The translations under genes were made by a program, and so were the position numbers. Below the pieces are notes generated by a model. It had not been told where the DNA came from. It searched no databases and saw nothing but the letters and a program-made list of their open reading frames with translations. From Haplodiscus bocki (Eukaryota), in contig OZ296648.1 of assembly GCA_965655095.1 (NCBI GenBank), positions 155,930,001 to 155,994,000 on the forward strand: 64,000 nt of DNA. Direction: 5' to 3'. The number at the start of each line of letters is the position of its first letter. Within the stretch, counting starts at the first letter, position 1. This document shows, one piece after another, positions 22,987-60,585 of this stretch.

Positions 22987-24356
22987 TCAATTGAATAGGG
23001 CGTTTTCCTCCAAATCCGCAACGTGCATTGACTCCACTAGCAAATTACGAGACCCACTTTTGCGCTTGTTCTTCAGCCGAGATGCTAACTTTCGAATAAA
23101 CGACACTTTACCCAGAATGGCATCTCTTCCTGCTAAATTTGGAGATCTATAATTAGGTTCACTACTGTGATGCCGCTCATTAGTAATACAATTGGAACGA
23201 AGGAAACTGCTATAGCTTTAAAACATGGCTTGAACGTTCCGCTCATAAACCGAAGATGTTACGTTATGCAAGTCTTGCAGCTTATGTAATGATTATCCAA
23301 CAAAAAAATAACGTCGAAAGCAAACGTTATCACGACAAACCCAGATCTGATTTAGGTTTGAGCCAAATCATAGAGAAAACAAGAGAGTTTACGCTATACT
23401 AATTAGAATGTGAAATATATTTAGCTTTATTCTGATAGTAATCAGTGATTTCCAAATCGCTGATTATTGGAATCAATGAAAAATACCATACCGTATGTAT
23501 GAGCTGATTGGGAGCCAAATAAACCAGTAACAACTCTAGGTATCAATTGTGAAGAAATAATTTAAATTTGATGCAAAGTCAATGCGCTTTTTCATCTTAT
23601 TTAAATTTGAATTCAAAATGACTTTTCAAATCGATAACCGTCAGCCAACGCTTTCCTCATACAGACTGTAAATTAAGCTTTCAGACACCCGGACGACGAT
23701 TGCGTAACTTTAATCCCCGGAGTTTGTTGCCATTTCTCTAGTAAACAGGCTTGATAATTTCAAATTCAATATACATGTATCTCAAGAAGTATACCTATAA
23801 AAAACTCTCATTATATAAAAGACATGAAACTGAAAGAGTGAATTACTTTCAATAACATTTCCAAACCTCTGGGAAGAATGAGAAAGCTATTCATTTCAAA
23901 ACAGTCATTCACAATTTGTCATCTAGCCAGATGCGGATTTCTTTCCACGTTTGTTAACTTTATTCTGTGAACAAAACATCACACAAGCTTTAACACGGGC
24001 AGCCTTTGCCATAACCTTGCTATGGAGATAACTCTTTCCGGTTTGGTAAGCCAGTCTGTTTGCTCTTCGTGGCCCGGTCGAAGAAACTACCTGTCTTTTG
24101 CACTTTCCACTGGGGTATTGAGTCTTTCGAACAAACACAATTTTGTCCTTCTTGTTCGCGATGATGAGCTGCTTATTTTGAATGAAACCCACTTGAGATC
24201 GTCTGTTGACATTCTTGATGGAACCGGGATCCAAGGACATATCCAGTTTGGGAACCTTCTGACTTCGACGATAGCAGTTTGTTTTAGCAACAATGCTCCA
24301 GACCAAACTGGAATTGTTATTGGCAACAGGAGGACTTTTTCGAACCATAGGGCTAT
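22987..24356 (-). CDS. Possible exons of an unidentified host gene (24356 to ~23950; terminal exon 23129-22987)
   Basis: Three overlapping >110-aa ORFs at 23923-24459 in AT-rich DNA, acceptor TTCTTCCAG| at 24357, and a second acceptor TTTAGCAG| at 23130 opening 46 codons to TGA. No recognisable domain or strong donor. Confidence 0.25.
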
Positions 24357-24439
24357 CTGGAAGAACAAATTTATTGAACAAAGAATAATGTTATTCAGAG
24401 AATCAAGAAATTTTATAGCAAAACAAGCCAAGAATGGCC

Positions 24440-25462: not shown

Positions 25463-26460
25463 AGTAGCTCAACTAAATGATGAAAAAAAATCCCGTGAAA
25501 ACTCTCATGAAGTTTTTACAGTAGCGTTTATTATTTCACTTATGATGTATACAAAGTTTTAAAAGGAACTCAATTTCCCCAACAAACACAATATTCATAA
25601 ACAAGATCGCATCTTTAGAAACTTGGAACAATACACAAAAATGGAAACGAAATTTAAAAAACGACTTAGATTTAATTGGAAGCGGGATGAGGTGAAAAGT
25701 AGCATAGATGACATTAGAAGCCGGATGAAGTATGATTGGGGCGATATGGGAAGCAAGATACTATGAGGATCATGGAAGTGGAATGTAAGGGTTGATATTG
25801 GAAGCTGAAAAAAATGACGATAATGGAAGCGGGATTTGATGGACGATCTTGGAAGCGGGATGATATTGCAGTGCGAAAGCGCGATAGCATAGATTTAACT
25901 AGAAGCAAGATATAATGGATATTGGAAGCTAAATACTAGAGATTTAATTGGAAGCGGATTATATTGGGGACGGGATATATTGGAAGTTGATTATGATGGA
26001 CCATGCTGCAAGCAGGACAACCAAGAATTGTTTGGAAGCAGGATTTATTGAAAGATATTGGAAGCAGGATAAAATGCTTGATAATGGAAGCCGGATATTA
26101 TAGGTTTATTTGGAAGCTGGATAAGATGTGGACGTAGGATTTAAAAAAATTGATATGAAAGTTGATTAAAAAAGGATGACATTAGAAAGTGCATGATAGT
26201 GGAATCTGGATGATATTCAAACCTGGATTTCTTGGATATCATTGGAACGAAAATTCTAATGAAGCATGATGGGTGATATCGGAAGCCAAATATGATTTGT
26301 AGAAGTTGGATGATAATGGAAGCTGTATACGTTGAAGGAAAGCGAGGATGATTTTTGGAAGTGATATGAAAAAGGAAGCTTGATGATGTGGCTGTAATTG
26401 AAAGCAGGACAAGATGAGGTTACTGGAAGCAGAATACGATGATTGATAATGGAAGTCATT
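25463..26460 (+). repeat. Left TIR of Polinton-1, with internal ~20-nt 'tggaagcgggat' minisatellite
   Basis: 25666 'ttagatttaattggaagcgggatgaggtgaaaagtagcatagatgac' matches the reverse complement of 44437-44484 'catagattcaattggaagcgggataaggtggaaggtaatatagatgac'. The match continues outward to 'actctcatgaagtttttacagtagcgtttatt'. Confidence 0.88.
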
Positions 26461-26678
26461 GAAAACTATTAGAGATGTAATTTGAAACAGAATAAAATGG
26501 TCACTTCCGATAAGTTATTTACACTGCAGCTATTATAAGAATTGGTGAGCTACTGTTTTATCGGCATTACGAAATTCTATAATCTTGAGAAACAAGAAAA
26601 AACCAGGCATTTACTAAGACTGGAGCGAATAAAAAAGACGACTTCTAATCACAATTTTCGATACAGTTGAAGAATAGA

Positions 26679-28150
26679 ATGACATCCCATGAAGAAATTG
26701 ATGAGTAACAACAACTTTGTATGTTAAAAAATTTAAGTTTAGCTGTAATAAATGAAATTAACATCAGGACAAATATCCAGTCTGTCCAATAAGCAGTATT
26801 GGAATTAGACACCCTCTACTGTGTAGTGATAGATACGTGTAGGAAGATAAATCTATTGAAGAATGGCTTAGGATTCAAGATTCGTTACAACACCAATAAC
26901 AAATTTTATTGAATATGTACAACCTTGTAACCTAAATCATAAACTATAACTAAATACACTATTGACAGAGAAGGTGATTCTCAAAGACATAATTTTGACA
27001 ATTCCCAAGACGATTCTCTAATTAATCATTACATTACTTAACTTGATGTTGGAGATGTTAGATTCAATTTTGATGAACAATTATTGAGGAAACTAATTAA
27101 AACACATCCATATGCTTTATATCATCCATCCCCTCTACAAAATGACATAGAAATCGATATGGATGCAGGTAAAAGATGTTCAAGCGTTACTCAACGTATC
27201 TGACGAACAAAAAATGAAAAAGAAATTGTTAAGAGAGCAATGGTATTACTTTAGAAGGAGCAGTTTTTGAATTGAAAAATCATAAAAGTTGTTAGGAAGA
27301 AATTGAAAAAAAAATGGTCTAGCGTCAGAAAGTCTACTGAACTACGAAATGATAGAGATTGATTGTTATGAGAGAAATGATTGTTATTGAGGCTGTTAAA
27401 AGAAATGGTAAAACTTTCATGAGGGGGCAAAAAATGAAGTACAAAAATGATAAATTGTTATGGAAGCACACAAACAATATAGCTTGGCTTCGAAAATGGG
27501 CATCTAAAGAAAAGATGAGAGACAAAAAAATAATTTCAATCGCAAAGAATTCATTCACCAGGGACGCTAACAAGGAAAGTGATCGATTGTAAGAAGTATA
27601 GGTTTTGCTATATCAAATGGAAGCTAATTATCCAATCTGAACAAAAAACGTTATTGTAATTAGACATAAAGTATTATGTAGCGACGGCTAAAAATATGAA
27701 AAACGCACCTATTCTTCGTTGTCGTCTCACGTAACACCACCAGTCAATCGTCAATTTAAAATTTTTTTAAAATTCAGTAAATTAAAAAAAATAAATTCAA
27801 GAGGGAAAAAGAAGCAAATAGAAAAAAAGTGAGTGCAAGGTAAAAAGGGAAAAGAAGTTAAAACAATAGTTGAGTAAGAACGATTAGTTTGGTAACATTG
27901 AGAACAGGAATATTCGAATAGATGATGGGAAACTTCTTCTTCAACTGGTTTAAAAAATTGTATTGCTATGAAAGTTGCTTCTGGAAAAATAAAAGAAAAA
28001 GAAACTGCGCTACATGCTGTAAAACAAACTAATGACGCCATAGGTTTTCTAAATGTTGAATTTAGGAAGATGTGGATGTCGTAACAGCAGTAATTAAACA
28101 AAACAGTGCTTTTGAAAAATACACCAAGATTTTAGAAAGTACCTCAACGA
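26679..28150 (+). pseudogene. U-box (E3 ligase) domain + DUF4116-type helical repeat protein, pseudogene, cargo of Polinton-1
   Basis: 26768-26905 translates DKYPVCPISSIGIRHPLLCSDRYV*EDKSIEEWLRIQD/TPITN, fitting the U-box pattern CPI..P...DG..YE...IEEWL....PIT. Downstream fragments LQNDIEIDMDAGKRC, ALLNVSDEQ/NEKEIVKRA, STELRNDR/EMIVIEAVKRNG, WASKEKMRDKKII, KEKETALHAVKQTNDAIGF and DVVTAVIKQNSAFEKY fit the S-E-L-K-N-D-R-E-I-V-L-E-A-V-K-Q-N-G repeat. Confidence 0.7.
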
Positions 28151-30559
28151 TAATCCACCATATGCAACTTGTATTAGGAGTAAATGTGGCTATATTTATT
28201 TACATTCAAGTGGATTTTTTGGTTCATTCTACCCAAATCTCGATCTGCGAAAGCGTCTACCTCCTTTGACACAGTTTTTCATTCTGTAGTTGAAACTGTT
28301 TCAGGATTAATTCCGTTAATGTTTAACTTTTCACCATAACTTAAAAAAGCTATTCAAATCCACATGCGACATAGTTCTTTATAAGGAAGATTCCCTTATA
28401 CCTATATCAGGACAAATACCTTATTTTTGTTGGCGGTTATCTGTTTTTGCTTCGTATAAATTATAAATTACATCATTTTTTCATCTAAAAACGAATTACA
28501 TCAAGAGTAACGTCGCCAATTGTATTGAAATAATTCATTTGTATTTGATCTACAGGAGCAAAAATGAATGAAGAATTTAAGTCAAAAGTTAGGGCTGACA
28601 AAAGAATCCGACAAGAAACAATTAACAGATTAGAAGAAAAAGAGAAAACAGGAGGCGCAGTCGCTCTGCGATACCTCCCGTCAATGAGGCGCAAAAAATT
28701 ATGATGGAACAAACACCAAATCACTTCAAAAAACCCGTTATTGACAAAAAAGTATCGAAGGAGACCTTGTCGGAAGAATGCAAGCCGGTAGCTTTAGCAA
28801 GAGAATTTTAGGATTTACGAAATATGTCAAATGAATCCTTTGGAATTTTCGAAACATCAAGATTCCAATTGAAGTGAAACTTAAAAATATCACTGTCAAC
28901 AAAATCACTGCTTTAAAGCACAAGAAATGATCCGAAGTTAACGAGGGCCCTGATCAAACAATTCTCAAGCAGTCCAGATTTAAAAAAAGACTGTATCTGA
29001 ACATTTTGGAAAAGAGCCGACTGGCTATTCCTGGCGGAAAGGTATCTTCAGAAAATTTTAACCTGAAGCAACACTCCTTAGATCCTTTCGTTGATCACAA
29101 TCCGAGTCTTTTTTGTTTGAAATTGGAGAATCCCATGAAGAAAAACTCAACTCTGCTCTCGAACATTCAAACTTTGTTCTGACTTATTACCATCAAAGTT
29201 ATAAAAATTAACGTACGGTAAAATCTGATCAAAGTTGATATATTCACCTGATTTGTCTACATAAAATCATCGCGTGACACTTGGAAGGAGTGAGTTCAGT
29301 GTGTCCACATTCCAAGAAAAAGATAAGATAAAATAGAATAGAAAACAAAAATGGGTTACCGAGTTTGAAGTTTATAAATACTGACATCCGGAATTAATAC
29401 TGAGAGCTGATAAAATAAAATGTGGCGTCACTACGGCGTTGAACAAGCACTTCTTATCAACTTGAAAAACCAAAATGACATCTACAAAAACAACATCAAG
29501 ATAAGTAATAATGTACTAATTTTCCATGAATTACTCAGCTTAAAATTTTTGAACTGCACAAACTAATCTATAAATTACTTTACACTGAAAATAAAGGAGG
29601 GGGGATTGTTCTACAGAAGTGAGCTCTTCATTTGCAAAGTCAGGAGCTTTTAGTTCCGCATTCTTTGAATAAACAATTCAAAAAAACTTGAGAAAACTTT
29701 ATCATGTCAATGAACTCAATAAAAAATTACTCAAATAGGTTATTTTCTAAAGAAGGAAATTGAATATGAAAAATCTGTCACATTCTGTAGTCCGAATCAT
29801 TTGGAAAATGAAGCAATACTACGCTGCTAGCATGGCTTTCGCACCTTAAATCGCAAAATTTTCAGATGAAAGTCAAAAGTTCGAGTTCAGAAAACCTTCT
29901 ACACTCTGTGAGTAATAGCGCCAAGAAACGTTGAAAAAGCCAAAAAACGAAAATCACCAGGATACGATTGTGCACTAGAGCAACGAGCTTGTATCTCGCG
30001 TAGTATGAGCGATCTGTTGTTCACGTTATTCAAACGATATCACTTCGGTTTTATTTCTTAATATTAAACTTTGGAAAAACGACACCAAATTAAAGGTGTC
30101 AAAATTGGTTTCTTGACGTTCGATTGTTTTTTTAAGGAATTGAAAGTTTCAGAGACTATTCAAGACGTTTCAAAGCTCTGACAGAACTGTAGGGAATTAC
30201 AGTTGGTTGAATGCCACGCCCAAATCAGTTTTGAACTGTCAACCAAAAATACACGAATTAGTTGCTTATGTTGACTTTTGTGTGGTGGCCCCAACAGTCA
30301 ATTCAGACATTGATACAAGAATTCAAACCGGTAACTCTGGGGAAGGACGAGTTGGAATACCGAGAAAACCCAATATGAATAGCAATTCTCCCATTTTTGG
30401 TCAATCAACAATATAATCTCGACGTAGAGAATATTTTTCATGATATTTAGTAATGAATAGTCCATTTCAAGTAAAAAGCTGTCGAATACCACCATGATAG
30501 AAAAAAATTCGAGTAGAGCTGAAGAAATATGAGTTTGAATATCTTGGCATCTCAAGACT

Positions 30560-32900
30560 AATAGCAATTTCTGACATTTAAGGTCCATCAGGATTCTAAT
30601 TCACGGAGAAAAACCAATGATTTAACACGTATTCCAACACAAGTAAAAAGTTTTAGAATGAGACTTTGAAAGAAGAAATCGAGCCACTTGGTTTGGATAA
30701 ACACGAGTTCCGAAATCAAATTGAGCCCATATTACAAACAATTCTCGCATTTCTGGTCCATGACGATTTCAATGGAGTAACAGAAATGATAGGTGTTCCA
30801 TCCAATAGCACTTTCTGATTGCGACTTTTTCCGAAATCATCAAGCCTGTAGTTTTGGAGAAAGACGAGTTCGAGTATAGACATTTATGAATATCATTAGC
30901 ATTCTCGGACTATCATGATTCCGACGCAAGTAGCAAAATCAATTTTTTGAAAGTCTATTCCTCTAACAAAAACAAAAAAGCTACAAGCAGACCTTGAAGG
31001 CAAAAATCATGTCACTCTTCAAAGAGAAATGTGAGTTGGAATAGCGGAAAAATGTCCAAAGCAAAAGCAGTTCTCTGGCATTTTCTAACTCTCGAAAGAC
31101 CAACGCAAGGAACAAAGTTTTTAGTTTCCAATTTCGTCTACGACAGAAAAATGGTCGATCGAGATTTTGACGCTTGATTGGAGAGACCTAGTCCGTAGTT
31201 ACGGCGAAAAAGTTCAGATATCAAGGTAGTTCAAAAGCAAAAACTTTCGATTTTTCGGACTGTTGGGACTCCAACGCAGAGAACGGAATGAATAGTTTCT
31301 CAGTGTAAAGCAGGCACACAAGCCAAAAAATTTCAGCTGAGACTTCGATGAGAGAAATCAAACCTGTAGTTAATGGAAAATTGACTTTGAATAACGACAT
31401 AAGTCAATAGTAATGACTATTTTTTTTGCATTTTTCGGACTATGAGGATTGCGATGAAATGGTCCACGTAAAAAAATTTACTATCAAATCCTCCTCTATT
31501 ATTGTGAAGTTTTCGCTGGACATATCGAAGAAAGGCATCAAACCTGTAGTTACAGAGATACATGTGTTCGATTATTAAGATAATTCATTGATAATCGCAC
31601 TTTCTGAAGTTTCGGACAATCAGCATTCTGATACAAGGGTCAAAAGGATCAAACTCTCCAATAGATCAGGCTCTACAAGTGCAAGGCGTTCGATTGCGAC
31701 CTCGAGGAAGAAATCAAACTTGTAATTACGCAGAAAAAAGACACTGAATAATGATATAAGTCAAAATTATTGACCTCATTTTAACAATATTCAACTATCA
31801 GGATTCTGATGCAAGGCTCAAAGCGAATGAAGTTGCAGAAAAATTCAACAGGACATATGTAAAGTTTTCGATAGAGACCTCAGTGGAAAAAGTCAAGCTC
31901 GTACTTACGTTTACAGATGAGTTTGAATAAGGAGATAAAAAAACAGCAAATTTCGGAATTTTTTGACTAACAAGAAAATTGAACCAGGGAACAAAAACAC
32001 TCGTTCTTCAACAGAAAACAGCAGTACAAATTTCTAGCTTTCGATTGAGACCTTGATGGAAGAAATCAAGCCCGAAAGCAAAGAGAAAAAAGTAAAGGGA
32101 AACAATAAAGAGAATCTCGCGATCAATCATGATTAAAAGCACATTATGCAATCCAATCTTCAGACTATCAAAAGTCTGAACCAAAAAGCGGAATATTTTC
32201 TTCTATCAATCTAATCCTCCTCAAATAGAATGAAATTTTCAATTGGGACATTGATATTACAAATTGAACTTGTTGTTACGGTCAAACGTGATTTCGAATG
32301 TCGAAATGTATCAAAATTGATAAACCTTTTTGGAATTTTTGGACTATTAAAAATCCCATGCAAGGATCAAAAAAAAATTTCTTTTGAACCCTCCTCTACG
32401 AAGGTAGAGTTTCTCAGTGAGATATTCATGGGCCAAATCAAACCTTAGTTACCGAAAAACATCAGTTCTAAAAGCGGCATATATCGAAATTAAAAATCCT
32501 GTTTGAGAAATCTTGGACTATCAAGTTTCTGATGCAAGGAACAGAATCAACAGTTTTTCAAGGGAAAGGTTTGGCACAAGTTGAAAGCTATCGATTAAGA
32601 TTTCGATACGACGAATCAAGCAAGTATTTAAGAAATAAAACATTTGATAATCGAGATCTCCAAAAACATTAACATTTTTTTCGCCTTAGAGGTATTTCAA
32701 GATTCTGACGCAAGGAAAGGAAGGAAAGATTTTTAAAAAGCCTACCGTTGTGCAGGTAGAGGGTTTTCGATTGGAACCCAGATGACCGAATTGAATCTTG
32801 TTTTTTCAGGAGGAAATTGAGTTGCAAATTCTAGGAATTTCAATACTGAACCCAGTTATAGGCCTTTCCTCAATGTGAGAGTCACAGAATGATACGTTCA
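30560..32900. repeat. Degenerate ~178-bp satellite array (~13 monomers) nested inside Polinton-1
   Basis: Variants of the anchor 'ggactatcaggattctgatgcaagg' at about 30585, 30757, 30907, 31086, 31257, 31437, 31614, 31793, 31965, 32163, 32341, 32515 and 32691. An orphan monomer lies at ~20850. Confidence 0.85.
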
Positions 32901-33265
32901 AGCAATTAAAAAATCGAACTAAAAATGTATTCTCTGGCCACGGACAAACTAGGCTAGCAAAAAAGACTAATTTCAAAAAAATACTTGAAAGATTTTTCAA
33001 TCAGTGACATTCATATTTAAATTTTTTAAGAGATCAGTCAACTTTTGCATTTTTTACGGATTTTCGGCGAAATCAAACAAATTTTCTCAGACTGGTGGAA
33101 AACATTCAGAAAAAAAACGATGTGCAGGAGTTACGCCCCAAATCGGATAATTGTTGCATAGGGCTCTTTTATCAAAAAACCTTGAATTTTGTCGAAAAAA
33201 CCGTTTTTTGATACTAAAAACAAAAACAAAAAAGTGTTGAGTGTCTGAAAATATGTCAAATTTAT

Positions 33266-33330
33266 GGCCAACAGCGGGATTCGAACTCTGCATTTCACGC
33301 TTCCCAACCGCGGTGACACCCGACATATGA
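33266..33330 (-). other. tRNA-derived fragment
   Basis: Minus strand ...GAGTTCGAATCCCGCTGTTGGCCA (B box plus CCA-like end); the 5' half is not recognisable. Confidence 0.35.
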
Positions 33331-33445
33331 ATCAAACAAGACATCAACGATTCTGCAGATTTCAACTCTGCGCGTCATGGGCAGTTTCAGGAAAAGGAAA
33401 AAACACCCCGACTACTGAATTGCATATCTTCAGAAAAAAATTTCG

Positions 33446-34900
33446 ATGGAAAATAACAATGCAAAAAGAAACCAAGGTGCTAATGGAGGATTGTTCGTTG
33501 TACAGGATAAAGTTGAAGACAATGTTGTTTTTAACATGGGTGATGTAACAAATGATTCATCTATGGAGACCGAACACCTTAGTGCGAAAATTGAAAATGA
33601 AATTGATGATCAAATTGCTCTGAAATCTTATGTTGAAAAAAAAACAACAACCGAGCCCAGAAAAACACGAAAGAATTCTAGCAGCAAAACTACCGAAACT
33701 AGAAGGTAGCAAAAGTTTAGCTTCCCAGATAACCACATAAGTTTCTTGAAATCGTCATTAGATGCTGACCTATTTTACAGAAAAATCTCATCTGAAAAGG
33801 AACTAGCTATCGACAAATTCATTTGCACAGAAGAAATGTTGCAAACAAGATTAATTGAAGGGATGGAGAAGCAACAATATTCTCAAGAAAAGTTAGCACA
33901 TGGAAAGATAGAAAATTTCGAAGAAGATATCAATAAAAATCGCCAAATGGTTAAGAAAAGAGATAACTGATATATCTGAACAGAAAGAACCAGTTGATGT
34001 AAATGCTAAAACTTTTTTGGAAATTGTACAAGATGGTCAAATCTTGAAAAAAGTAAGCATAGAGGGAAAAAGGCTGAACTAGCATGTCTCGAAAAAAAAA
34101 TGAAAAGATGACGGAAAAAAGGGAAACAGATTCAATAATTCAGATTATGAAATCCAAAATACAGCTTTTCTATAATAAAGTACTATTTTATAAATTTTCA
34201 AACAAATATCAAACTTTTACACCAATTTTGATTTAGATGATTCTTCAGTTTTGAAAAACATGGTAAGGCAATTAATCGTCGAGAAATAGATTGGAGAGGA
34301 GGATGACATTTATCTCATTTGGTTTGAAAATCTGTCGAACTAATTTATGCAATGATTATCTGATACGCCAGCAGCAGAAAAAAGACATGGTTGATATAAA
34401 ACAGAGTATGAACATATCAGATGCAGAAATATCTGGAACACGAATATAAAAAGTAAACCCAACTTCAGTAGAATCATCTGAGATTGTAGAAGAAATTATA
34501 GATAAAATGTTGAAAGAGGTCAATAGTTCAAATATTTCATTAAACAATATTAATGTAATAATTTCAAGAGATTAGGAAGTTGAAAAATACAAAAGGAAAG
34601 AAAACAAAAAATTCTAACGTGGAAAAAGATTTGCACACAACACATTGTGTAACGATTGAACGCTCTAAAAGCAAATCTATATCTCTTAGGGTAACCCAAC
34701 TCGGATTAACTGTAGTACAAATAAATACTAGTGTTCCCGTTTATAGACAAATATACGCTGGACTTACAACTAAAACTACCGAGAAAAATATATTCTTCCC
34801 ATAATTGACACCTCTTCAGAAAAATGTACTTTAGAGGTTTGGAAGATAATAAGGTAGATCAAGCAGAATTTAACAACTTCACCAATCTACATGATGAGGA
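33446..34900 (+). pseudogene. Decayed Glu/Lys-rich (coiled-coil-like) Polinton ORF upstream of the capsid gene
   Basis: A chain of short purine-rich + strand ORFs (33446-33709, 33746-33970 and following) broken by stops; no family assignment. Confidence 0.4.
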
Positions 34901-34982
34901 AACTTGAAAAGAAAAGATCCACCTTTTCTACCTTGAGAATTAAAACAAATTGCTGAATGAAACTAACTCTTTAAGTACTTAA

Positions 34983-36165
34983 AATGATAATCAAACAAAA
35001 TAGTACCAAAAAATTATTCAGAGATATTTAGAAAACAGAGTTTGTTAAACGCTCACCAAGCAGTTTCGAAACAGTCAATGCCAAAAAGAGTAATATAGAA
35101 TAAAGTCTTCCGCATGAACAAAACTATATACCCACAAAACAGTTAAAACTTTGAGGACAATGAGGTAACAAATCACACTGCTGCTAACACACAAAATGCT
35201 AAAATGACAATATCTGTTTAATGACTCATGGACCTCGTTCCCTATTCAGTGAAGCTAAACTTATATCAAGTACAAAAAAACGTCTTGAGAAAGCTGATAA
35301 TCTTCATACTGTTAGTTCAAGGCATCCGCTCTCAACATCCTTACCCGGAATAACTGATTGACTATATATATATTCGACCCTGAGGTTGGGAAAAGACGGA
35401 GAAATTCCAAATATTAACGCAGTAGGAGCAAAACGCGGTTTGTATAATAGAATGTGATTGATAGATATCTTTGGTTTTGCTGATCAAAATGAAAAAAAAA
35501 ACAGATGGATGAGGATATGATCTTATTCCGAAACGCACCAACAAAAAAGCAGCAAATTTAGTAGACGCAGCTAAAGCTGCGGATAAAAAAACTAATAGAC
35601 TTATATTATGCTATGTCGCAGATTTCAACCCTACTCTTGAGAATCAACAAACAGTTGCTACTGAAATACTAGCAAAAAGAGCGACCGAATTATATTATGT
35701 GGAACGGAGAGTTTTCCGAAAAGCAATCCTAAATAATGGTAGATGGACTCTTGAACTGGGAAAAAAGAGCGGAAAAGTATACCATCTTGAACTTTTGTGA
35801 GACTTATTAATAATAAAATTCTCACACATTTTTCGACTTCTGATCTACTCGATTATCTGAGAAAACGGTTTCATGAAGTATACTATGAAAAAGAAAATTT
35901 TCTGACTAAATACACCGCGGCGCTAGTAATGGAATCCTTAACAGAAACAAAAAGGTTTAGGGAAAAATAATTTATATGAATTCGATACAAGAGAGCGAAA
36001 AGATCACGAAGGTGCGCAACTAATTGATATAGCATTCAGATTCTCTGTAGCTGGTATTGCTGTTACAGATTATACAGCATTCGCAATGAGAACGGCTCAT
36101 GGTTTATCTAGTATTAGTTCTGATGGAAGGCGGACGTTTGATTCAAAAGTTATTGTTGAAGATTA
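34983..36165 (+). pseudogene. Polinton-1 major capsid (double jelly-roll) protein pseudogene
   Basis: Manual translation gives KTEFVKRSPSSFETVNA, HGPRSLFSEAKLISSTKKRLE, ATELYYVERRVFRK...WTLELG and C-terminal YEFDTRE...AQLIDIAFRF...SISSDGRRTFD. These resemble blocks I recall from invertebrate Polinton major capsid proteins. Confidence 0.7.
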
Positions 36166-36449
36166 ACTGTTCAAACAATTATTCCGACGAGTATTGAAGA
36201 AAATATTGCAAAAGATATTCAAAAGAGTGTTCCAGTAGTTATTCAAACCATTGTCCTGCAAATTGATTGAATATTCATTCCAAAAACTTTTTGTAAAAAC
36301 CATAATAGCAAAGAATGTAGAAAAATTAACAAGTAACTAAAGATGATAAATTTTCAAAACAATAGCTATCGCAAATGTAGAAAATTAATTAGTAAAAAAA
36401 GTTGAAAGTGACGTTTGTAGCAAATTTCTTAGTAAAAACATTCTATGCT

Positions 36450-36830
36450 CTCATAAGATTACAGAACACTACAGCAACGGGGTTGAAACATTCGTCATCA
36501 TCATCTTCATCTACTCATAAGAAAACCTCAAGATCCTACGTAGTGGAGCAAAGAAATGGAACCTCAAAAGTAGGTCCATATTTTTGTGGTGAAATACATC
36601 TTACGATCAAGAAAATACTTTTAAAAACTGGAGACAGAAAAATCAATGCTCGATCTCTTCTTCTTGAACAATATTCTTTCTTGGACGCCCCCCAATGAGG
36701 TAGATACACAGGATGTATCTTTGATTGACGAATAGAAACTTTGTGTTGTTGTAGTCCATGATATGTCAGATTCCAAGCAATCTGCACTTGAACCGGTTTC
36801 CACTCAGCTTACACACTAAAATACCGAAAA
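36450..36830 (+). pseudogene. Polinton-1 packaging ATPase (A32/FtsK-like) pseudogene, 3' truncated
   Basis: Decayed Walker A VGPYFCGEI (from GPSxxGKT) in ORF 36402-36698, and decayed Walker B CVVVVHDM (from hhhhDDM) at ~36740-36765. Confidence 0.65.
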
Positions 36831-37299
36831 ATTAGGGATGTACAGTATTCATCCCAACGCTATTTTAAAAAACCTGTGATAAATAGGGACAGCAGTATTA
36901 TTCTTATATTATTCACACAAACTGCTAATATGGTACAAAGTTTGTATAATTATATAGCCGGACTTGATGAGTTGAGAGGAATTGGATGATTTGTGTAGAG
37001 AAGCTATGAAAGCAAAACATATCTATTTTATGACTAATGTAATAGATGACCAAGAAAAATATTGCACATACAATGAATGTAATAATGATCGTGAAGTTAC
37101 AAAGCTTCAAATAGTCGTTCTATAAACAGGGTAAAGATTTCGCTGACTCAGTTTCACTTTCGAAAATTGATTGAATAGTTCGTTCGAGTTTGTAAATTTC
37201 GTAACCTTCGCGGTTCTTGATTGTGAACTTTTAAACAAACGACAAATGATATTAGTAGAGTTGTTTTTCCGTAGAGTTTCCTCTTTTCACTCTCAGGAA

Positions 37300-37700
37300 T
37301 CATACCAAAAAACAATCCCTCTCCTTGATGAGTAAAGTTTATAACAGAAGGAGCAGTTGCTGCAGTAACTAAGTTCTGTTCTTCTAGCAACAGATGATTT
37401 ATCAGCAACACTTTCTAATATTCCACTTGGATTTTCACCTGATTTAGTACCAAATTCTTACCAATTTACCAGTTCGCTTTCCAATCGACTTGAATGATCA
37501 TATAAGCCTTCTACTGTAGTATCCTTATAAACAATCCTAGCTTTACTTCTTTTCGTTTATTAGGAAACCACGAAACAACTCTCTCTTTAGCAGCTTTTAT
37601 ATCATACGCGGCCTAAAACTACAACTGCGATAAACCTAGTTGTTGCCCGATAACGCTTCCCTCCAACGCGATAGGAATTGGCTTCAAAATTTTGAAAACT
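37300..37700 (-). pseudogene. Polinton-1 small basic/core-like protein pseudogene
   Basis: Fragments NSYRVGGKRY, TVEGLYD and PSVINFTHQGEGLFFG (GxGL-type motif); lies immediately downstream of the minor capsid gene. Confidence 0.5.
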
Positions 37701-37744
37701 ATTCGTTTACTTTAATAAAAATATGAGTTTCAAAGTTTCAAAAA

Positions 37745-38790
37745 AAAATCTGTTGTAAAGGCCAAGTTTGTCCAGCAAAATCAAATCGACTAGGATAATC
37801 ATCATTAAATGAAGAAATTTCTCACTATGCGGCTCTTTGTTTATTTTCTCATAGAGTAGAGCAAAAGGTTCATTGAAAATTTTGGAACCTGGTGAGGACC
37901 CAAGACTGAAAGAAGATAGGATAACCTCACAAATTCCATTAACAATTGACTTATCAACAGAAAATCATTTAAACTGAACTTTATCCATATTTGGTGTGTT
38001 CAAAAGTTTTTCTGTTGTATTTGTTCCCGCCGAGAACTTTGTTTTTGTAAAGCCTAAAACATCATCAAACTGTGAAATGAAAAATATGAGGTGTTGTTAA
38101 ATATCATAGTCTTTACTTTAGCTTTAACCTCTATATCCTCCAACATTATTTATGTCCCTAACCTCCTATAAACCAGGTTGCAAAACGTGGGGTAGATCTA
38201 CAGCATCAATAAAAATTGGGCCCATATTACAATCAAATTCTAAATAATTCTAAAAAAGTAATTGCAAAATTGATAACAAATCTATATCTTCATCCCTCTC
38301 ATGTCGACCATATTTCAATTCCTTTAAACCTTCGATAGAATTAATCGTGGGTGTTTCATATTCAAAATCCGATGAATGAAAAACATCATGTCAACGATGT
38401 GGGTCCATTCGGTGAGGGATGTGAATTCCCTTCGCATATGTACTAGCTAGATCTATTGTTATTCAAAATTATTTTCAAGTGTAATCTGGTCCAATCAATT
38501 TAAACTGACTAACATCTCCAGCTTTTTGTTCATAGTCACCTGGGGTTAGAAGAGTGAATTTATCATTCCTATCAGTTATGTTACACACACTATTTTACAC
38601 TTGTGAATCAGTAACATCCATTTATCCTGCCATGCAGGACCATAAGGGACTGAAGGAAGATCAAATGTGAAATTCTGCTCAATTAAAATTAATCTAAATC
38701 TGAGTTCTTAGTGTCTATTATGGTTTAGTATGTGTATTCTCTTCAACTTTAATGAATATTTCTGTTCTAAAGGATGAACTCCACTTTCAT
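37745..38790 (-). pseudogene. Polinton-1 minor capsid (penton) protein pseudogene
   Basis: C-terminal block MDKVQFK*FSVDKSIVNGICEVILSSFSLGSSPGSKIFNEP..LYEKINK...RFDFAGQT matches the penton C-terminal pattern (CD...SxVNG....L.SF....PG.K...EP...DFxG). Confidence 0.7.
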
Positions 38791-38879
38791 TGGATTGTGC
38801 AAATGAAAATTGTGAGATATCCTTATTATTAATCACAGAAAAATAATTCTTCATAACCGCCAGCAATATTATTATTACG

Positions 38880-39227
38880 AGTATTATTGGAAAGTTTTTT
38901 TGAAGAATGTGTTCACTATCACTATTTCTGTTTTATTTGAAATGCATTCCTTTGCAGTTTTAGAAACTAATATATCACAAACACAAACCGTACGTCTTAA
39001 GCTTTCTACAAGTCATTCAATACAAAGAACCTGTAGCGCTATGCGGATTACAAAAGGACTATTTTGACACAGCTTTTCAAAAATCTATTGAAAGTAGATG
39101 CATCCAAAAAACATAAAAACAGTACCTCACACTATACGACCCTTTGATTTGCTCCTGTATCTAATATAAAATCATATGTTGCTTCACTTTTCACAGTATA
39201 CGTTGATTAAAACTCTTTTAAAACCAT
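38880..39227 (-). pseudogene. Polinton-1 cysteine protease (adenain/Ulp1-like) relic
   Basis: The ATG abuts the pPolB stop (TAAATG at 39230-39225). Decayed LDTGANQRVV (for GTHWV), CFYVFGC (for YFDSFG) and YGLCL*YI (for CG.YCLY) occur in order; catalytic residues are lost. Confidence 0.5.
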
Positions 39228-42200
39228 TTACTGCCAAGGTATACTTTCTATTTTACCAAAATAACGTCCTTTATCGTTGAAAGAAATGAGGGCAAATTTC
39301 TCAACTTTTTGTGAGTTCATTTCATGTCCACAATTTCTAGTCACAAAAAATCTGCATATTCTTTATATTCACCTCCAGTTAAACAGTCAAAATATTCTTC
39401 AGTTAATTTTTCCTCTAAATACATTGGAAACTCCTTTCGAATTAGCTTTAACTTCTTCCTCATCACTACAATTAAATGCGCAACATGACGCTCTCAATGC
39501 AATGAATTTTCCTTCTGTCGTAATTTTCCCAAATCCTCACCTATAGCTTTACTTTAAAAACAAAGAATAAAAGAATCACAGTCAAAATAGTGCAACTGTA
39601 GATCATCTGGTCCGAAAAAAGATTGCAGTCCAATATAACGTTACACATGAGGAATGTAAATTTAGCTCTGAAACAATACACCCTAAATATAATGGTTTAT
39701 GGAACATTTCATTTTTCAACGAAAAAGCTGGTAAATCATCATATGATTTTGATCCAGCGAACGGATACTTACTTCGTGAACTAGCATGACTCCGGATTTC
39801 GGATACAGATCTAACATTCAAACGATTGCGCCAGTTTCTAAAGTTTTTCCATAGGCGGAACTAACTATTGCAACAGTTTCCATTGTTTTTTCATAGAAAG
39901 AATTAACCTTTATGAAAGCCTCTCTCAATTTCACCGTTATTAGCAGCTTTGTTATTTCTTTTACTATCAATAAAACCTTTCAACCGCGGTTTTTCTTTAT
40001 AGCTTAAAACATCGTGTACGTTACCCGCATACCTTGTGGGATTAAAAAATATTGGAATTCTATAATGTACTAATAAAATGTTTTCTTTCTTGGTCCAATC
40101 ACAGCTTAAATTTTCCGGTACTTTAGACTACTTAACGTCACGCGCATGTTTTATGAATTTTCATTTCTTGGCAGAATGAGACATTACAAGATTCATCTGT
40201 AGCTTCTCAATCTGTCGTATCTCAATCAACTTGATCAAAGTAGCCAATATCAGCAAAAACTGGTGCCGCGAGAGTTGTATCGACATCAACTGAATTCTCG
40301 AATTCAACACAAACTCATAAGGTAAAAAATGTGAAAAAGCCCAACCATTAAAAACAAAGAATACATACAACACTTTGTTTAGGTTACACCACAAAATCCC
40401 CCGCGCATCTGTCGCCCATTGAAAAGAAGTAAATCTTCATCTTGTATATTCCATAGTTCTTTTCGAACACACTTCAAACCAGCGGTCGAAGTAAACCCTG
40501 GGTTAAATAAATTTATCAGGGTTGATAGTAATCTGTAGCTGCTTTTTTGAGAACTGTCTCAAACAAATCAGCCAGCAACGTTGAATTAGATTTCATATAA
40601 AACATTTTTGGACCTTTCCCAGTCTTAGCAGTAAATTCTTTCATTATATCAAACGTGCGGATCAAACAGACACCTCAGAGATGCTCACTCTTGAATTTGA
40701 GGAGTGTTTTTCTATGACATTCAAGTGAATTTAAAAAAATAGGACAAGCCAGCTTTTTAAAACTTTGTAAATTATCACTGATTCAGGTCTAGGGTATTTT
40801 CCATTTATAATTTTGAAGTCCTCTAATTTCAGTTACCACTAAAGCGTCAAAACTTGATTGAAGAATTCTATAGGAAGCTATGAATCTTAATCATTCATCA
40901 TCTATAAAAGTAAAACTTTCTGCTGTCGTTGGAATTAGTTTCCGTTTAGATTTATCATTTCTAAAAGTTGCTAAAACTTTGAAGAACAAGTGAGAAACCT
41001 AATTACTGAAATTGAGAAGGGTTATAGGGAGACAACTGGATCATGACTTTTAAACGTTCAAACCACAGGACTGAAGAGCAGTTCCTCTATAGTTTCCTTC
41101 TTAACAACAAACATTTCTAACGTTCATTTCACTATTTAAAAAATTGGTATCACAATATTAAATGTATTTTGTATCTACGAAAGCAGTTTCATTATCATCT
41201 GGAAATTCAAGCTCTCCATTTTTTTCCTAAAAAAAGAAAGTAATTTTGTTTTCTCATTTAATCATAGCATTAACCAAAGGTATCATAGAATTTTTTGCTG
41301 AGTGTGAATAATATCAAGTCGGAAGTTAATCATTTTCTATAACGGATACAAGACGTTAGCCAAAAAAACGGGGGTTTGGTGATATATATCAGTCGTTCTC
41401 TTTCGCTGTGACTTAGCGTTGGATACATTGCAAGTTTCAGCATCAACTCCAACAGGTATAGATTTTTAAATCGAATTTACTCTATTTAAAATATTTCTCT
41501 CTGGGAAAATGATAGTACATGCTTCACCGACTAAAAAGAGATCCCGGTGTTGGTTCGAAACTTCTTTAATGAAAAGACACGATGAACAATTTCTAAAACT
41601 ACGTCTTACATCAAGTTGGCAAAGAAACGAATGCAACTCTTTTCAATCGAAAAACAAAGACTTTCCAAGACCAGCAGACATAATTTCCTTTTGGGGTTCG
41701 CCTTGCGATTCACTCGATTACCATTTCAAAAAAAACTGAGAAATACTCAAGCTTCAAAAAAAACATTTTCATGATTTAAATCGAAGACGTTCACTTAGAT
41801 TTTGATTTTCTAAAAATTCACTATTCTCTTATTTCAAACCACTATGGAAGTCTATTCGATTTGTTTTGATAGTATTAAATGACTTTTGAAGCTCACAAAT
41901 TCTCTCAGCATCTCTTCTAACGAGATAATTAGATGTTTTAAAAGACCATATTGTACAAAATTTACCATCGTTTTATATGTTCAAAACTGATTTATTTTAT
42001 AAACGAAAGCTTTTAAAGGATGCATCTGTAATCGAAACTGTTTCATACAGACTATATGTAACAGATTCAAGTTCGTCAAATCTCCAACCAGAACCTTTCA
42101 ATTCTCGGTTTTCGACAGCAGTTTTTGGTTCAGATTCAAAATCTGATGAATCTAACTCCTTTTCTGCTTCTTATCTGATGCGTTTTTGAATAGATGAATA

Positions 42201-42500
42201 TCTCATGTCGTTCAAATCCTATCTCCTTTTCAGGATTTTCCGAAAACAGCATTGAAATCAGTTTGTAGTTTGAAAATTGGGTTGTTCAATCAACCTTGAA
42301 CAAAAATTACCACATTTTTAACGTTAGGATAAGCAACTTCAGGTTTCATACTTCATCATTCACTGAAACATTAACTGTTACATTACCAAAATATTCTCCA
42401 GCAGTTTCTATTTTCGTAGCAAATCCTTCATCTAGAGCCGGCCTATTCGCATTTGCAACTACAAAAAAATGGAATTGAGAGTTCTTTTTGAACTGATGGA
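39228..42500 (-). pseudogene. Polinton-1 protein-primed DNA polymerase B pseudogene
   Basis: In order on the minus strand: GNYRGTALQSC, NFSN*VSHLFFK, LRFIASYRIL, MRGG, motif A relic LYV....GWAFSHFLPY, motif B relic AYGKTLE, KPLYLG, motif C LHYFDCDSF and terminal FNDKGRY...SIPWQ*. The 5' boundary is approximate. Confidence 0.88.
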
Positions 42501-42999
42501 TTCACGTGTATCACAGAGTGTGTTGGTTGAGGTATTTTAATTTTTTCATGACTTTTCGATAAATTCAAGCGTGTAAGTACTACTTCGAACAATACAAATT
42601 TCACTCACTCTTTTACTATCATCGTTGGACTCACCAAAACTCAGATAAAGGGTTTTTGTCAAACTCATATACGCCTCAATTTCCTTTAGGAATACGAACA
42701 TGAGAGCGCAATAAACATTTTGATGCCTGAGATGATCCAGATTGTGAATAGTTCTCGAAATCAGAAGTTTGATGAAATTTATTTAAAAGACCAGACCTCG
42801 ATTTTTGTCCAAATCAGATATTTGTTTGATCGATCATTTCTTGCAACCAGAACACTGTCTTCTATCTTTTAATACTTCATTAATTGCTTCATATGCTTCC
42901 ATAACTCCTTCAAACGGTATAAATTTAGAAAATTGAAAATTTTCCTTTCCAAAATGGAAAGTCTTTCCATCACACTTTCAAATTTAGGGACAACAATTT

Positions 43000-43760
43000 C
43001 ACAACTGCTTCAACATAGTGCTCAGGCCACTAATGAACAGTCTACGATTCTGCTAACAACGAATAGTATCAACAAAAATTTGAAGAATTTATGAATTTAA
43101 AACTCCAATTTGTTATCTCCTCTAGAAAATATCTTCCTCGTAACAGCCGTCCAAACTAAGACTCCCATACTATAATTTTGATTTGTTTGTTGCGTTCACC
43201 GTAATGGTTCCCGAAAACGATCATCTCAATTTTTTTCAGAAAAGCATCAACTGGAGTCATCTCAATGGAACTATGGACAGTGTTGATGTTTTTCGGTGAT
43301 AGAGAAAGGTTGATCGATCCAAATACTATTACCTTTCACAGAAACTGGCTTTTCCAAAAAACTATAAATCTATTCACAATTTCAGCGAGTCCTGCTCCAT
43401 TAAACGCAGATCTATATCGCCCTATTCCCACTTCTCTGAATCAACCTAAAAACAAAACTTACAAACTCTTTACCATCTTCTTTTCTATTAGTTTAGTGTT
43501 TTTGTAGATGAAATCAGAACGTCGCGAAAGCATCAGTTATTGTTTAGGCAAAAAAATTTCTCGATGGAATCACCCATCAATGGAAGTTATCAACCACAAA
43601 AAATGTAAACAACATCCATTACTTTTTGTTCCACAATAAATCAAAACCAAAAAATCTGAGCGCCAATTGTTAACAAAAAGTTTGAATTCGGTTTTGTATC
43701 AAAATTCTCCTGAGGAGATTCTGAAGAACTTTTTGATAAAATCATCACCAGTTGTTTATC
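43000..43760 (-). pseudogene. Polinton-1 retroviral-like (DDE) integrase pseudogene
   Basis: Fragments NNWRSDFL, VDNF..W.IP, GAGLAEIVNRFI, VHSSIEMTPVDA and LVWTAVTRKIFSRGD/NWS occur in integrase order. Confidence 0.8.
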
Positions 43761-43849
43761 AATTTTTTGATATGACTCCACTTCGTGGAGGTTTCTTTTT
43801 TAATTATCGAGCTGAAACTCTGAATTTCACATATTTATTTCAGCCCTCT

Positions 43850-44676
43850 TCCACTATCAACATAGAAATTGAACCACCAATTATACCTATATTATCCTTC
43901 ATCAATTTCCAATATCAACCACAATATCCTCCTTCCAAAGCCATTTCAAACATCTTTCATTATCTTCCAATATCATTATTCGCACCTGGCTTTCAAAAAT
44001 CATTCACAGAATTCTGCTTCCAATGAAACCTATACTATTGTGCTTCCAATATGCCCACATTATCCTGCTTGTAATATCGTGCATCAAATTCAACTCCCAC
44101 TGAATCCCGCTTCCATCATCCACATCTCCTCTTTCCAATGTAACATATGTCATCGAGCTTCCAAGATGATCCATTTTATCCTGCTTCAAGTATTATTCAT
44201 TATATCTCGCTTCCAATTAAATCGGTTTCATCCCGCTTTCAGTATCGCCCATCAAATTCAGCTTCCAATAGGTCCCGCCTCGAATAATATTTGCTTCTAT
44301 TATTGTCCATCAAATCCGGCTTCAGTACCATCAAAATTTATTAGCCTCCAATATCAACCATTAAATCCCACTTCGAAGACCCCCATGTTATCCCGCCTTA
44401 CATATCACCCCAACCAAATCTCAACCCGCTACCACTGTCATCTATATTACCTTCCACCTTATCCCGCTTCCAATTGAATCTATGTCCTTTTCAAATTTCA
44501 CATCCAAATTTTGCGTATTATTCCGAATTTGTGAAGATGCGAGTAATGTTTTGGAATAGTGTTTTTTGGGGAAAACGACTTCGATTTGAATGTTTGTATT
44601 TATTTTGAGTGAAAAAATAAACGCCATTGTAATAGCTTCAAGAGAGTAATAAAAGGATTTCTTAAACTAAACTACG
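43850..44676 (-). repeat. Right TIR of Polinton-1
   Basis: Reverse complement of the left TIR, including the 'atcccgcttccaat' minisatellite. Confidence 0.88.
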
Positions 44677-45219: not shown

Positions 45220-46586
45220 AAAACAGCCACTGTTGGGCAAAAGCGGTCACATAGCAAGGGTGTTCCAAAAATTGACAATTAGGACATTGGGTAAAGACAT
45301 AAGAATCCGGAAACGAAAAAATCTTCCAAAAAGCCGTGTTTTTCTCAGAAAAATTGGTTCAAAGTTTCGAGCAACCCGAGGTTCACAAGAGCACTGAGGT
45401 ACTGAAAGAAATTAGGAGGTATATATTCAACGCTAGTTCAACCGAGATGAGGGTCGTAAAAAACTATCGCCAAAGGGAAGAAGAACTGAAAAAAATTGCA
45501 CTACATCTAAAGAGTACCTTGGCCCTATATCTAAAGAGTACCATGGCCCGACCACTTTTTTAAAACCAACCGTATCATCAAAAAACTTCGAGTGCTTCTG
45601 CAGGCTTTCCAGTGAGCCTCACAACGCCCAGATGACTTTCATTATTTGTACAACAGGCTGATAAGTTTTCAGAAAAGTCTTAACAAAACATATCTGTTGA
45701 GACTTTTCGGCTATTAATCCTTCAGAAAAGTCATTAAAAAATTGACTACGGAACAGATTACTTAGTCTTCTCTGCAATCCAAATGATATGCTTGACTTTG
45801 AGGCACAAATGAAAGCGGTAAATTTTGGATAACACAGAAGTTTATTTGAAAACTCAATTTTTTCAGAAAATTTCGGACCAAAACAGTGTGGGGAAAAAAA
45901 CTGGAAAGAAATCGGCTATAAACAAAATGCAACTAACGCTTCATTTTCCATCGCCTAACCAGCAAGGTGATACCCTACATGGAAAATTACGCCAGAGAAG
46001 TGCGATAATGTAACACTTGTTCTCTGAAAAAACCTGGCTTTTCAATTGTTCTCGCCAAAAGCTGGCCGCGGAAAAACTTTCGTCCACCCAATATTTTGGC
46101 TTCGGTCAATTAAGACCTAGCGAAGGCAGCTAAGCAACAACCAAACGGATCCTACAAAAGCAAATTTAAAAAAGAGCGTCAAATTTGACTTAAGGCCCAT
46201 GGGGAATGTCAAATCTGTTGCGGAAAGATTCAAAACTTTTCACTTTTTTGGCAATAAACATCACAGCAGGCCGTTCAACTAAATAGTGTTCCTTGGCTCA
46301 GCTCAAAATAGTAGCAATTCAGAGCTTACTACAGAGCGAGGGCTCAAAAATATAGCATTTGCCCTCCAAAAATACCCGAATTTGTTATTTTTCCCGCTAA
46401 TAACTCGCCGAAAAACTTTCGGCTGTCGATAGAATCGAAAACGATAGATCGTCAACCCGTCGGAGTGTTAATACAAAAATTGGATAAATGCGAACAATAG
46501 GTGCCGAGAAAAACAGATTTAAACAGACCAAACGGAGAGGGATGTCACGGACGGGAAAAACGGAAATCATGTCGCTCCACTCGCCT
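45220..46586 (-). mobile_element. Non-autonomous Helentron/DINE-1-like element, older copy
   Basis: Colinear with 46860-47053 plus 47591-48715. Its right end is 'cgctccactcgcct' with an internal 'acggacggg' (CCGT microsatellite on the minus strand). The repeat is certain; the classification is inference. Confidence 0.45.
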
Positions 46587-46859: not shown

Positions 46860-48715
46860 GAAGTCCGGCCGTTGCTTAGCAAATGCCGTCTCACAGCGAG
46901 AAGGTTGAAAAAGTTGACAACCAGGTGTTAAATAAAGAAAGACGAATCTGGAAACAAAAATTTTTCCCAGAAAGCCGTGTTTTCTCGATAAATCTTGTAA
47001 GAAAACTCGATTAAAAGACTTTTCGCGCAACTCCGAGGTCACATGAACACTCAGGCTAATGCAATCAACTTTAACCATAGCTCGAGTTTGAAATATTAAA
47101 GAAGGCATGTCCACAAGTTATACCGGCGAAGTCTGATTGGTTGTTCAAAGGGCCCAAAACCAATCAACTTTTCTATTTCTTGCCAGCCGCAGCAAAGTTG
47201 ACATCAAACTACAGTGAAGTCCTCCGGAAAGACTCTTTACAGCAAACAACGGTCACAATTTTACTTCAGTTTTCAGCCAGAAAACTACACCAAAAAATCT
47301 TGACTTCTTTATCATGCTAACACCTCAAACACTTGTTATTGATTTCGAAGGCCTCCGTTTTTTAAAACAACCTTTCACAACTAAAGAGTTACCTGTTTGG
47401 GGTTTTGTCTACGATACAATTCTTCTGAAGCCACCTTGTCCCGTCCATTTAGTCTCTGTCACGGCACAGTAAAGTTATATGTGGATTACGAAAACTATGC
47501 ACGTTTTGAACTGAGATTTTGGAATTTATGATTATTCTAGTTTCTTTCTAATCTTAAAATTCCGTTTCCAAAAAATCATCATTCGCGCCACAAAGAGTAC
47601 CTTGGCCTTACCACCTATCGACGACCGAGCGTACCTTGGAAGTCTCTCGACTGCTTCTCCAGGCAATCCAGTCTGCGTAACGAAGCTCAGTTCCTTTCTA
47701 TTGTTTGTGCAACCGAAGAAAAGTTTAGGAAGAGTCGACAAAGGTTGAGGAAACGTGATTTTTGACAATGTTTGTCAAAAGAATCCACAACAGAAGTTAG
47801 CTTGCAGTCAAAACTTGCATCATAACACATTGCTGTACAAATTGCCTAAACTGTCAATCAAGACAGGTGACATTGATTGCTTTAATGCACGCTGAACGCG
47901 ACAAACTTTAGATAAATGCAGAAATGTATTTGGAAAATATTTTTTCAGAAAATTTCGGCCAGAAAATGGTGGAAAAATCAGAAAACATTCAGCTAAAAAC
48001 TGAATGCAACCAACGTTTCCGTTTCCATCACTTAGCCACAATTGGGATGCCATACATGTGTTATTAAGCCAGAGAAGTGCGACAAAGTAACACTGACTTC
48101 TGAAAAAAAAAATGGGTTTTCATTATTTTCCCCGAAAACTCGCCGGCGAAAAATTTTCGTCCAGCAAAAACTTTGGCTTCAAAATTACGACCTTGCGAAA
48201 GCAGTTAAAAAGTAAGAAAACGGATCCTACGAATGCGTTTGTAGAAAATGCGCGTCAAAGTTGACTCAGTGGGCAATGCAGAATGTCAAATCTGCTTCGA
48301 AAATATTCAAAACTTTTCACTTTTTTCGACCGAAACTAGCAGGAAAAAATGGCAACAAACATCACAGCAAGCCGTTCAACTAAATAGTGTTCCTCGGCTC
48401 AGCTCAAACTATTAGCGATTCCGAGCTTACTACAGAGAGAGGGCTCAAAAATATAGCTTTTGTCCTCTAAAAAAAATTCCAAACAAATTTTTTTCGCTAA
48501 CATCTCGCCGAAAAAAAACTGTTGCCAGCCGAAAGAATCAAACATGACGGATCGTGAACCCGTTGTAGTGTTTATAAAAAATTGGATAAATCCGAGCAAG
48601 TGATGCCGAAAAAAAATACATCTGATGGGATGAAACGCAGAGGGAAGTCACGGACGGGAAAAAATGGAATCATTTCGACGTGTCCTTGTGCGAATAGGCT
48701 TCGCTCCGCTCGCCT
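46860..48715 (-). mobile_element. Second Helentron/DINE-1-like copy, interrupted at 47054-47590 by Polinton-2 DNA
   Basis: The minus strand begins after a T-run with AGGCGAGCGGAGCGAAGCCT (self-complementary ends), then CCGTCCGT. A hairpin cggc-cg-ttgct-t-agcaa-at-gccg lies at the other end (46866-46888). Confidence 0.45.
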
Positions 48716-60545: not shown

Positions 60546-60585
60546 AAACCATGAGTTTGACATATAATAAGGGTCAACCGAATCA

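Follow-up and report, generated by a model that had tools for sequence, protein, structure and literature searches.

The 64-kb stretch of DNA analysed here (the window) very probably contains a single capsid-encoding Polinton/Maverick. It would have entered the germ line of a eukaryote with introns, probably an animal, and then undergone neutral decay. The element is bounded at positions 25,463 and 44,676, both ends included (19.2 kb), and carries the features that characterize Polintons/Mavericks: long terminal inverted repeats (TIRs), together with relics of a protein-primed polymerase (pPolB), an integrase, an A32-like packaging ATPase, a double-jelly-roll capsid protein (MCP) and a penton. 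Among these relics, the identification of the MCP is strong, and that of the penton, the HNH/EndoVII-type protein-primed polymerase, the packaging ATPase and the integrase is moderate. We observe a TIR pair, five gene relics with real breaks, low copy number and two concordant measures of decay, from which we infer one integration event.

A preliminary description of the locus had proposed a full-length Polinton with a complete virion module, hidden in DNA with no long open reading frames (ORFs) and derived from an ancient whole-genome integration. The longest stop-free frame within the element is indeed only 203 amino acids, antisense over the right TIR, and one old insertion is supported by the genes, TIRs and decay. 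The element is full length in outline, in that both ends are present, although later host repeats account for about 4.6 kb of its 19.2-kb length. The completeness of the virion module was overstated: the middle of the protease was undetected, no core gene was recovered and, a short penton piece apart, all the genes tested are frameshifted. Degraded Polintons are already known, and this is one more, well spotted but ordinary: a broken, long-dead virus-like element and genomic fossil, unusual only in that it may carry a repeat-protein gene as cargo.

Terminal inverted repeats and target site

The left TIR (25,463–26,480, plus strand) carries the end motif AGTAGC, a unique arm of ~200 bp and then a ~26-bp GGAAGC minisatellite, while the right TIR (43,990–44,676, minus strand) ends ACTACG. 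Each end fits (AGT)2//(ACT)2 at five of six positions, a match that occurs ~0.0045 times per base in the window; (AG)3//(CT)3 and (AGT)2//(ACT)2 are given as Maverick end motifs in PMC8097293. The two arms had been recognized by eye as colinear reverse complements, roughly three-quarters identical, and self-blastn bears this out, pairing 25,485–25,856 with 44,663–44,293 at 75.2% identity (E = 1e-62) and recovering a further inner inverted block at 71% identity. Colinearity of the left TIR with the right arm reaches about 26,132, and the outer 380 bp are 75% identical (K2P 0.31; JC 0.30 ± 0.03). This similarity is not limited to low-complexity repeats, because, once the 26-bp GGAAGC array is set aside, the outer 205 aligned bases still share 73.2% identity and score 202, compared with a best score of 92 among 838 other windows.

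The anticipated 6-bp target-site duplication (TSD) was not recovered in clean form: the flanks agree at three of six positions, the one on the right belongs to a high-copy repeat, and a scan across nearby end positions returned low-complexity coincidences only. At an expected identity of 75%, three or fewer matches would arise with a probability of ~0.17 by simple arithmetic. Short-read contigs gave about 3,300 joints, and the 15 that were listed include no empty-site joint. A 633-bp contig with 83% identity and ~three-fold depth spans 43,745–44,372, in the region of the right arm.

Relics of the capsid genes

The best-preserved gene is a near full-length relic of a double-jelly-roll MCP (PF21738 family) at 35,002–36,148 on the plus strand, with six stops and five frameshifts across 374 aligned codons. 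One frame of 34,652–36,172, used as the query of an exhaustive phmmer search, identified 37 proteins at E ≤ 0.001 (best E = 7e-20), and PF21738 matched 8 of the 14 MCP relatives that were scanned (7 above the cut-off). When these relatives were mapped back with tblastn, they aligned to 35,002–36,148 over nearly the whole protein length (E = 8e-34). Identity to one capsid family (P0002, P0047 and P0003) is 35–50% per segment. A model of the best match, P0002, based on a 38-row alignment (pLDDT 67), resembles the capsid proteins of PBCV-1, iridovirus, mavirus and Sputnik; the single-sequence fold of P0003 reached a pLDDT of only 34.

The C-terminal third of a penton (minor capsid protein) lies at 37,765–38,084 on the minus strand and is most similar (E = 2e-10) to L004, one of five short reference contigs (L001–L005, at most 2.1 kb) that were retrieved with the MCP alignment. 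The query group is presumably penton, a label that derives from its position beside MCP genes, with no Pfam hit behind it. A profile of this group matched 37,833–38,084 (−) at 44 bits, versus 7 for the decoy, and the frameshift-tolerant score was 108.1, versus a maximum of 42.8 for eight decoys. The rest of the gene probably lies within 38,085–38,800.

Polymerase, packaging ATPase and integrase

Queries for the remaining genes came from nine IMG/VR loci that were retrieved by a motif and from the five short contigs; the ORFs of both sets were labelled via Pfam where possible and then grouped. The pPolB relic occupies 39,261–42,149 on the minus strand (best match 62 bits, versus 4 for the decoy), and its profile matches, at 39,270–42,149, take in the region of an endonuclease VII-type insertion. 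The C-terminal half of an A32-like packaging ATPase was detected at 36,633–37,059 on the plus strand (frameshift-tolerant score 106.6, versus at most 46.4 for eight decoys), and the catalytic core region of a retroviral-like (rve) integrase at 43,112–43,630 on the minus strand (E = 1e-5), with a moderate frameshift-tolerant score of 87.6, versus at most 48.6 for eight decoys. In the profile search the ATPase and integrase pieces were weaker than those of pPolB and penton. The pPolB, penton, ATPase and integrase all exceed reversed or shuffled decoys, although the ATPase, integrase and pPolB were compared with distant relatives only and a lineage shared with the capsid module is not backed by a tree. 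Profile and frameshift-tolerant searches thus agree with the order and strands first proposed for the MCP and ATPase (plus) and for the penton, pPolB and integrase (minus). The separate ORF placed between pPolB and integrase had no match in Pfam or PHROGs, and this gap could be the N-terminus of pPolB.

Polinton fossils of this kind escape standard Pfam and word-index searches entirely. A direct Pfam scan of 42 out of 78 single-frame chunks (plus strand, 25.4–37.7 kb; minus strand, 35.9–45.2 kb) returned no Polinton gene and one sub-cut-off DUF4116 match, Pfam searches of 31 and of 30 targeted pieces of the element returned no Polinton family, and PHROGs gave nothing meaningful for 21 pieces. 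Word-index searches with MCP and integrase frames scored none of 5,494 and none of 247 candidates, respectively, and the pPolB frame had no match in a phage collection. Another, distinct Polinton relic is found 13 kb off in the same window; viral-contig scans with its integrase, and with the MCP alignment, the protease motif and the DUF4116 piece, gave no matches. Scans for tRNAs and Rfam families likewise had no match.

A probable protease remnant and unassigned intervals

A probable adenain-like protease remnant lies at 39,062–39,227 on the minus strand, where profile positions 1–17 are followed directly by positions 93–133 and the piece comprising positions 1–17 begins beside the end of pPolB. 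The profile represents 120 relatives and was seeded from L005, whose protease adjoins an MCP of the same family; the protease family as a whole comprises 858 relatives, many of them on contigs of hundreds of kb. The profile match at 39,062–39,178 (−) reached 12.9 bits, versus 7.7 for the best decoy, and the plain local frameshift score was no higher than decoys. When one long gap was allowed, the minus strand scored 62.0, the top of 634 windows and a value reached by none of 300 shuffles, versus 39.5 for the plus strand, which was reached by 6 of 300. The central part of the protease was undetected on either strand. The minus-strand protease originally proposed is therefore retained as N- and C-terminal pieces, with a middle that is gone or unrecognizable.

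A plus-strand candidate at 38,864–39,268 was also considered; in full-length alignment it was the top of 634 windows and beat all 300 shuffles. It was dropped because the one-long-gap alignment prefers the minus strand, the central slice ranks 129th of 850 on the plus strand, and the strand skew is in line with the minus-strand genes. Its full-length score remains unexplained.

Upstream of the capsid gene, a decayed ORF at 33,430–34,990 (plus strand) is marked by acidic/lysine-rich stop-free stretches and a plus-strand purine skew, and had no significant match in searches that included Pfam and PHROGs. The interval at 37,100–37,760 (minus strand), which had been labelled 'core', shows minus-strand skew and no homology was found; queries for a core/pX gene scored no higher than decoys, but these queries are distant and the gene may be present.

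A possible DUF4116-like cargo gene

A decayed ORF with DUF4116-like helical repeats is located at 26,497–28,066 on the plus strand. It contains three Pfam matches, all plus strand and below the cut-off (27,072–27,155, 27,380–27,418 and 27,953–28,066), the best reaching 18.1 bits versus a cut-off of 24.9, with a best E of 0.002. The interval had been described as a U-box/DUF4116 gene; the DUF4116 repeats find support in these matches, and the U-box was without a match in Pfam or PDB. The segment is low copy with a GC content of 0.31, similar to the 0.33 of the core genes, and therefore fits a gene of the element, whose own cargo it would be. An alpha-solenoid repeat structure has been modelled for DUF4116 (PMC8078820), and the domain is listed among annotations of viral transfer in Symbiodiniaceae (10.1101/2022.04.12.488082). 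We found no paper linking DUF4116 or the U-box to Polintons, although supplementary tables, such as those accompanying PMC8502044 or the bioRxiv papers, could list such accessory genes.

Alternatively, the ORF could have been inserted later, or its weak matches could have arisen by chance, in which case the element proper is an ordinary core-only Polinton. In keeping with this, every match is below the cut-off, DUF4116 occurs in none of the 74 ORFs from the fetched loci, and the piece had no relative among the viral contigs. We nevertheless consider it unlikely, given three separate matches to one repeat family on a single strand, an ORF that begins at an ATG adjoining the TIR array, and a GC content and copy number that resemble those of the core genes and differ from those of the nested repeats. 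If the ORF is cargo, a more doubtful extension is that the element belongs to an undescribed Polinton lineage with a capsid <50% identical to anything sampled, whose members bear a DUF4116 alpha-solenoid gene as host-interaction cargo acquired from a microbial or algal source; that gene might also have encoded a ubiquitin-ligase domain at its N-terminus. The contig of three-fold depth and 83% identity hints at younger siblings, which may still hold the gene, and the ORF would gain weight if they proved it to be regular Polinton cargo.

Decay, age and the case for a single insertion

Across the aligned relics we counted 26 stops and 27 frameshifts in 1,421 codons (28 and 29 in 1,494 codons with the plus-strand protease row included). 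An analytic model predicts 0.012–0.020 stops per codon at a divergence of 0.10 substitutions per site and 0.018–0.028 at 0.15, and the observed load of 0.018 fits 0.10–0.16 substitutions per site, a clock that is biased low because the aligner avoids stops. Half the TIR distance, ~0.15 substitutions per site, agrees with this load. Together with the finding that the MCP and penton, from opposite halves of the element, have their best scores with a single contig family (L001 and L004), this agreement supports one old insertion. TIR divergence had been suggested as a means of dating it; it provides a relative age of ~0.15 substitutions per site per arm, and conversion to years needs a host rate. 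Because this heavily decayed Polinton retains its two ends and yields two independent, concordant measures of decay, the locus is usable as a relative clock, and an orthologue in a sister species would show how old the capsid lineage must at least be. The overall significance of the locus is modest.

The locus might instead be a chimera of two related Polinton halves, one comprising the left arm, MCP and ATPase and the other the right arm and the genes from penton through integrase, brought together by recombination or by adjacent insertions; the TIR distance would then measure a subfamily difference, not age. The lack of a clean TSD, the strands that converge mid-element, the related copies in the genome (the 83% contig) and the second Polinton relic 13 kb away are compatible with such a history. 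It is very unlikely, however, as no gene is duplicated, the MCP of the left half and the penton of the right half both lead to the L001/L004 family, and the stop load agrees with half the TIR distance. A single old integration, supported by the genes present, the paired TIRs and the two decay measures, is the reading we retain.

Part of the present length is due to nested high-copy host repeats at 28,780–33,430 (~4.6 kb, edges approximate), which include ~180-bp tandem repeats of one family and, near 33,200–33,430, a short element of very high abundance. Summed contig depth across this interval is 430–23,000, versus about 45–50 for single-copy contigs; by the same short-read measure the core genes are low copy. 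The stretch is present in four DNA runs from one study and two samples, three of the runs (X1–X3) being of one sample. In runs X1 and X2, a 9,798-base short-read contig matches 33,377–43,174 with 6 differences and 0–2 gaps; the figures for X3 are 15 and 3, and contigs in all three runs cross the left junction unchanged. That the element is young or intact and its breaks are assembly errors has a negligible probability: stops and frameshifts are equally frequent, a pattern that long-read errors can produce, but the short-read contigs reproduce 33,377–43,174, which refutes assembly errors unless those runs built the window and have its errors in common, and the two TIRs differ by 25%.

Relationship to known elements

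The element resembles Polintons/Mavericks (Polintoviricetes) in its TIRs, pPolB, rve integrase, packaging ATPase, MCP, minor capsid protein and, probably, protease remnant, and its size before the later insertions, about 14.6 kb net, lies within their range of 12.7–24.6 kb (PMC8097293, PMC11071308). It departs from them in that no PZ/PW/core homologue and no clean TSD were detected, a DUF4116-like ORF adjoins the left TIR, and the gene order differs from the two-module layout of vertebrate Polintons. Its state of decay has ample precedent, as 96% of 3,511 vertebrate Maverick loci are reported to be degraded by stops, frameshifts and large insertions (PMC8097293). TIR-bearing Polinton insertions are described as common in corals (10.1101/2023.10.06.561300), and Mavericks as 4.5% of one acoel genome (PMC6451197).

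The closest capsid-module relatives are the P0002/P0047/P0003 family and contigs L001–L005, which share the MCP, the closest penton and the protease family. Their arrangement is different: L001, L004 and L005 have penton, MCP and protease in that order on one strand, whereas here the MCP faces the penton. An IMG/VR element, L013, gave the best ATPase and integrase scores among seven candidates each, and its pPolB carries an endonuclease VII-type insertion, as does the relic; its MCP scores 64, versus 503 for P0047. The pX-bearing core ORF of L013 had no detectable counterpart in the element, and queries for adintovirus (Beta) pX core, GasderminX and Cupiennin-like genes gave nothing above decoys, each being a single distant query from L013. 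An HNH-bearing pPolB may correspond to the Beta class of adintoviruses. The relics do resemble elements described as animal-associated (PMC8502044), which makes an animal host likely, but we do not file the element as an adintovirus.

Nematode pPolB2 Polintons likewise carry an HNH insertion in pPolB (10.1101/2023.08.22.554363), and cargo-carrying nematode Mavericks offer a precedent both for cargo beside core genes and for pseudogenized copies (10.1101/2022.07.12.499685, 10.1101/2023.08.22.554363). The nematode cargo is a protease or kinase (10.1101/2022.07.12.499685), in contrast to the DUF4116-like repeat ORF found here, and the present element gave no sign of having moved between hosts.

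Proposed history

By analogy with the Polinton family, the living element would have had its linear genome copied from identical inverted ends by the protein-primed pPolB and packaged by the A32-like ATPase into a double-jelly-roll capsid, which pentons would have closed and the protease matured; the rve integrase would then have inserted the element into the chromosome. After insertion, each TIR arm would have gained ~0.15 substitutions per site while stops and frameshifts broke the genes and the middle of the protease was lost or eroded, and host repeats amounting to about 4.6 kb presumably landed inside the element later. The present copy is broken and predicted to be inert. To the left of the element, the window holds exons of inositol monophosphatase (three) and peptide deformylase (one), along with an ORF for ribosomal L28e.

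Possible related copies and family expansion

The right end of the focal Polinton is matched at 43,745–44,372 by a 633-bp contig present in three short-read DNA runs of one sample (X1–X3). This contig shares 83% identity with the window and has about three-fold depth, an indication that the genome holds a few other, related copies of this end. Among the adenain-like protease relatives (P0068–P0172), most of the 120 listed, from a total of 858, each occupy a separate ENA contig tens to hundreds of kilobases long, which suggests that a related Polinton family has expanded greatly in some host genome. Within the focal element, the protease profile also gives an unexplained score on the plus strand at 38,864–39,268, overlapping the minus-strand protease remnant (39,062–39,227).

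A second Polinton relic and a tandem array

Another Polinton relic, distinct from the focal element, was observed at 57,400–64,000. Its plus-strand remnants comprise an A32-like ATPase at 58,348–58,572 (Pfam Pox_A32, E = 0.01; 12 bits in the profile search) and an integrase at 59,650–60,457 (38 bits in the profile search), and weak matches to the protease profile lie on the minus strand at approximately 63,590–63,730. Capsid-like sequence, read by eye only, was noted to the right of the integrase; comparison with the focal family of double-jelly-roll capsid proteins gave no match. Self-comparison of the window revealed a 3.17-kb unit in three tandem copies (47,054–57,094; 98.8% identity), which either arose by tandem duplication not long ago or reflects an error in the assembly. 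Every copy contains a piece of about 800 bp that is 74% similar to 45,810–46,574.

Other features of the window

A short element at 33,200–33,430 is present at very high copy number (summed contig depth up to about 77,000) and is perhaps a tRNA-derived SINE; ARAGORN and Rfam searches of the element returned no match. A B-box-like stretch was noted in it by eye. To the left of the focal Polinton, the window carries on the minus strand intron-bearing host genes for inositol monophosphatase (three exons) and peptide deformylase (one exon) at 663–3,273, and a very divergent ribosomal protein L28e ORF at 23,926–24,390, with the left end of the Polinton located approximately 1.1 kb upstream of this ORF.
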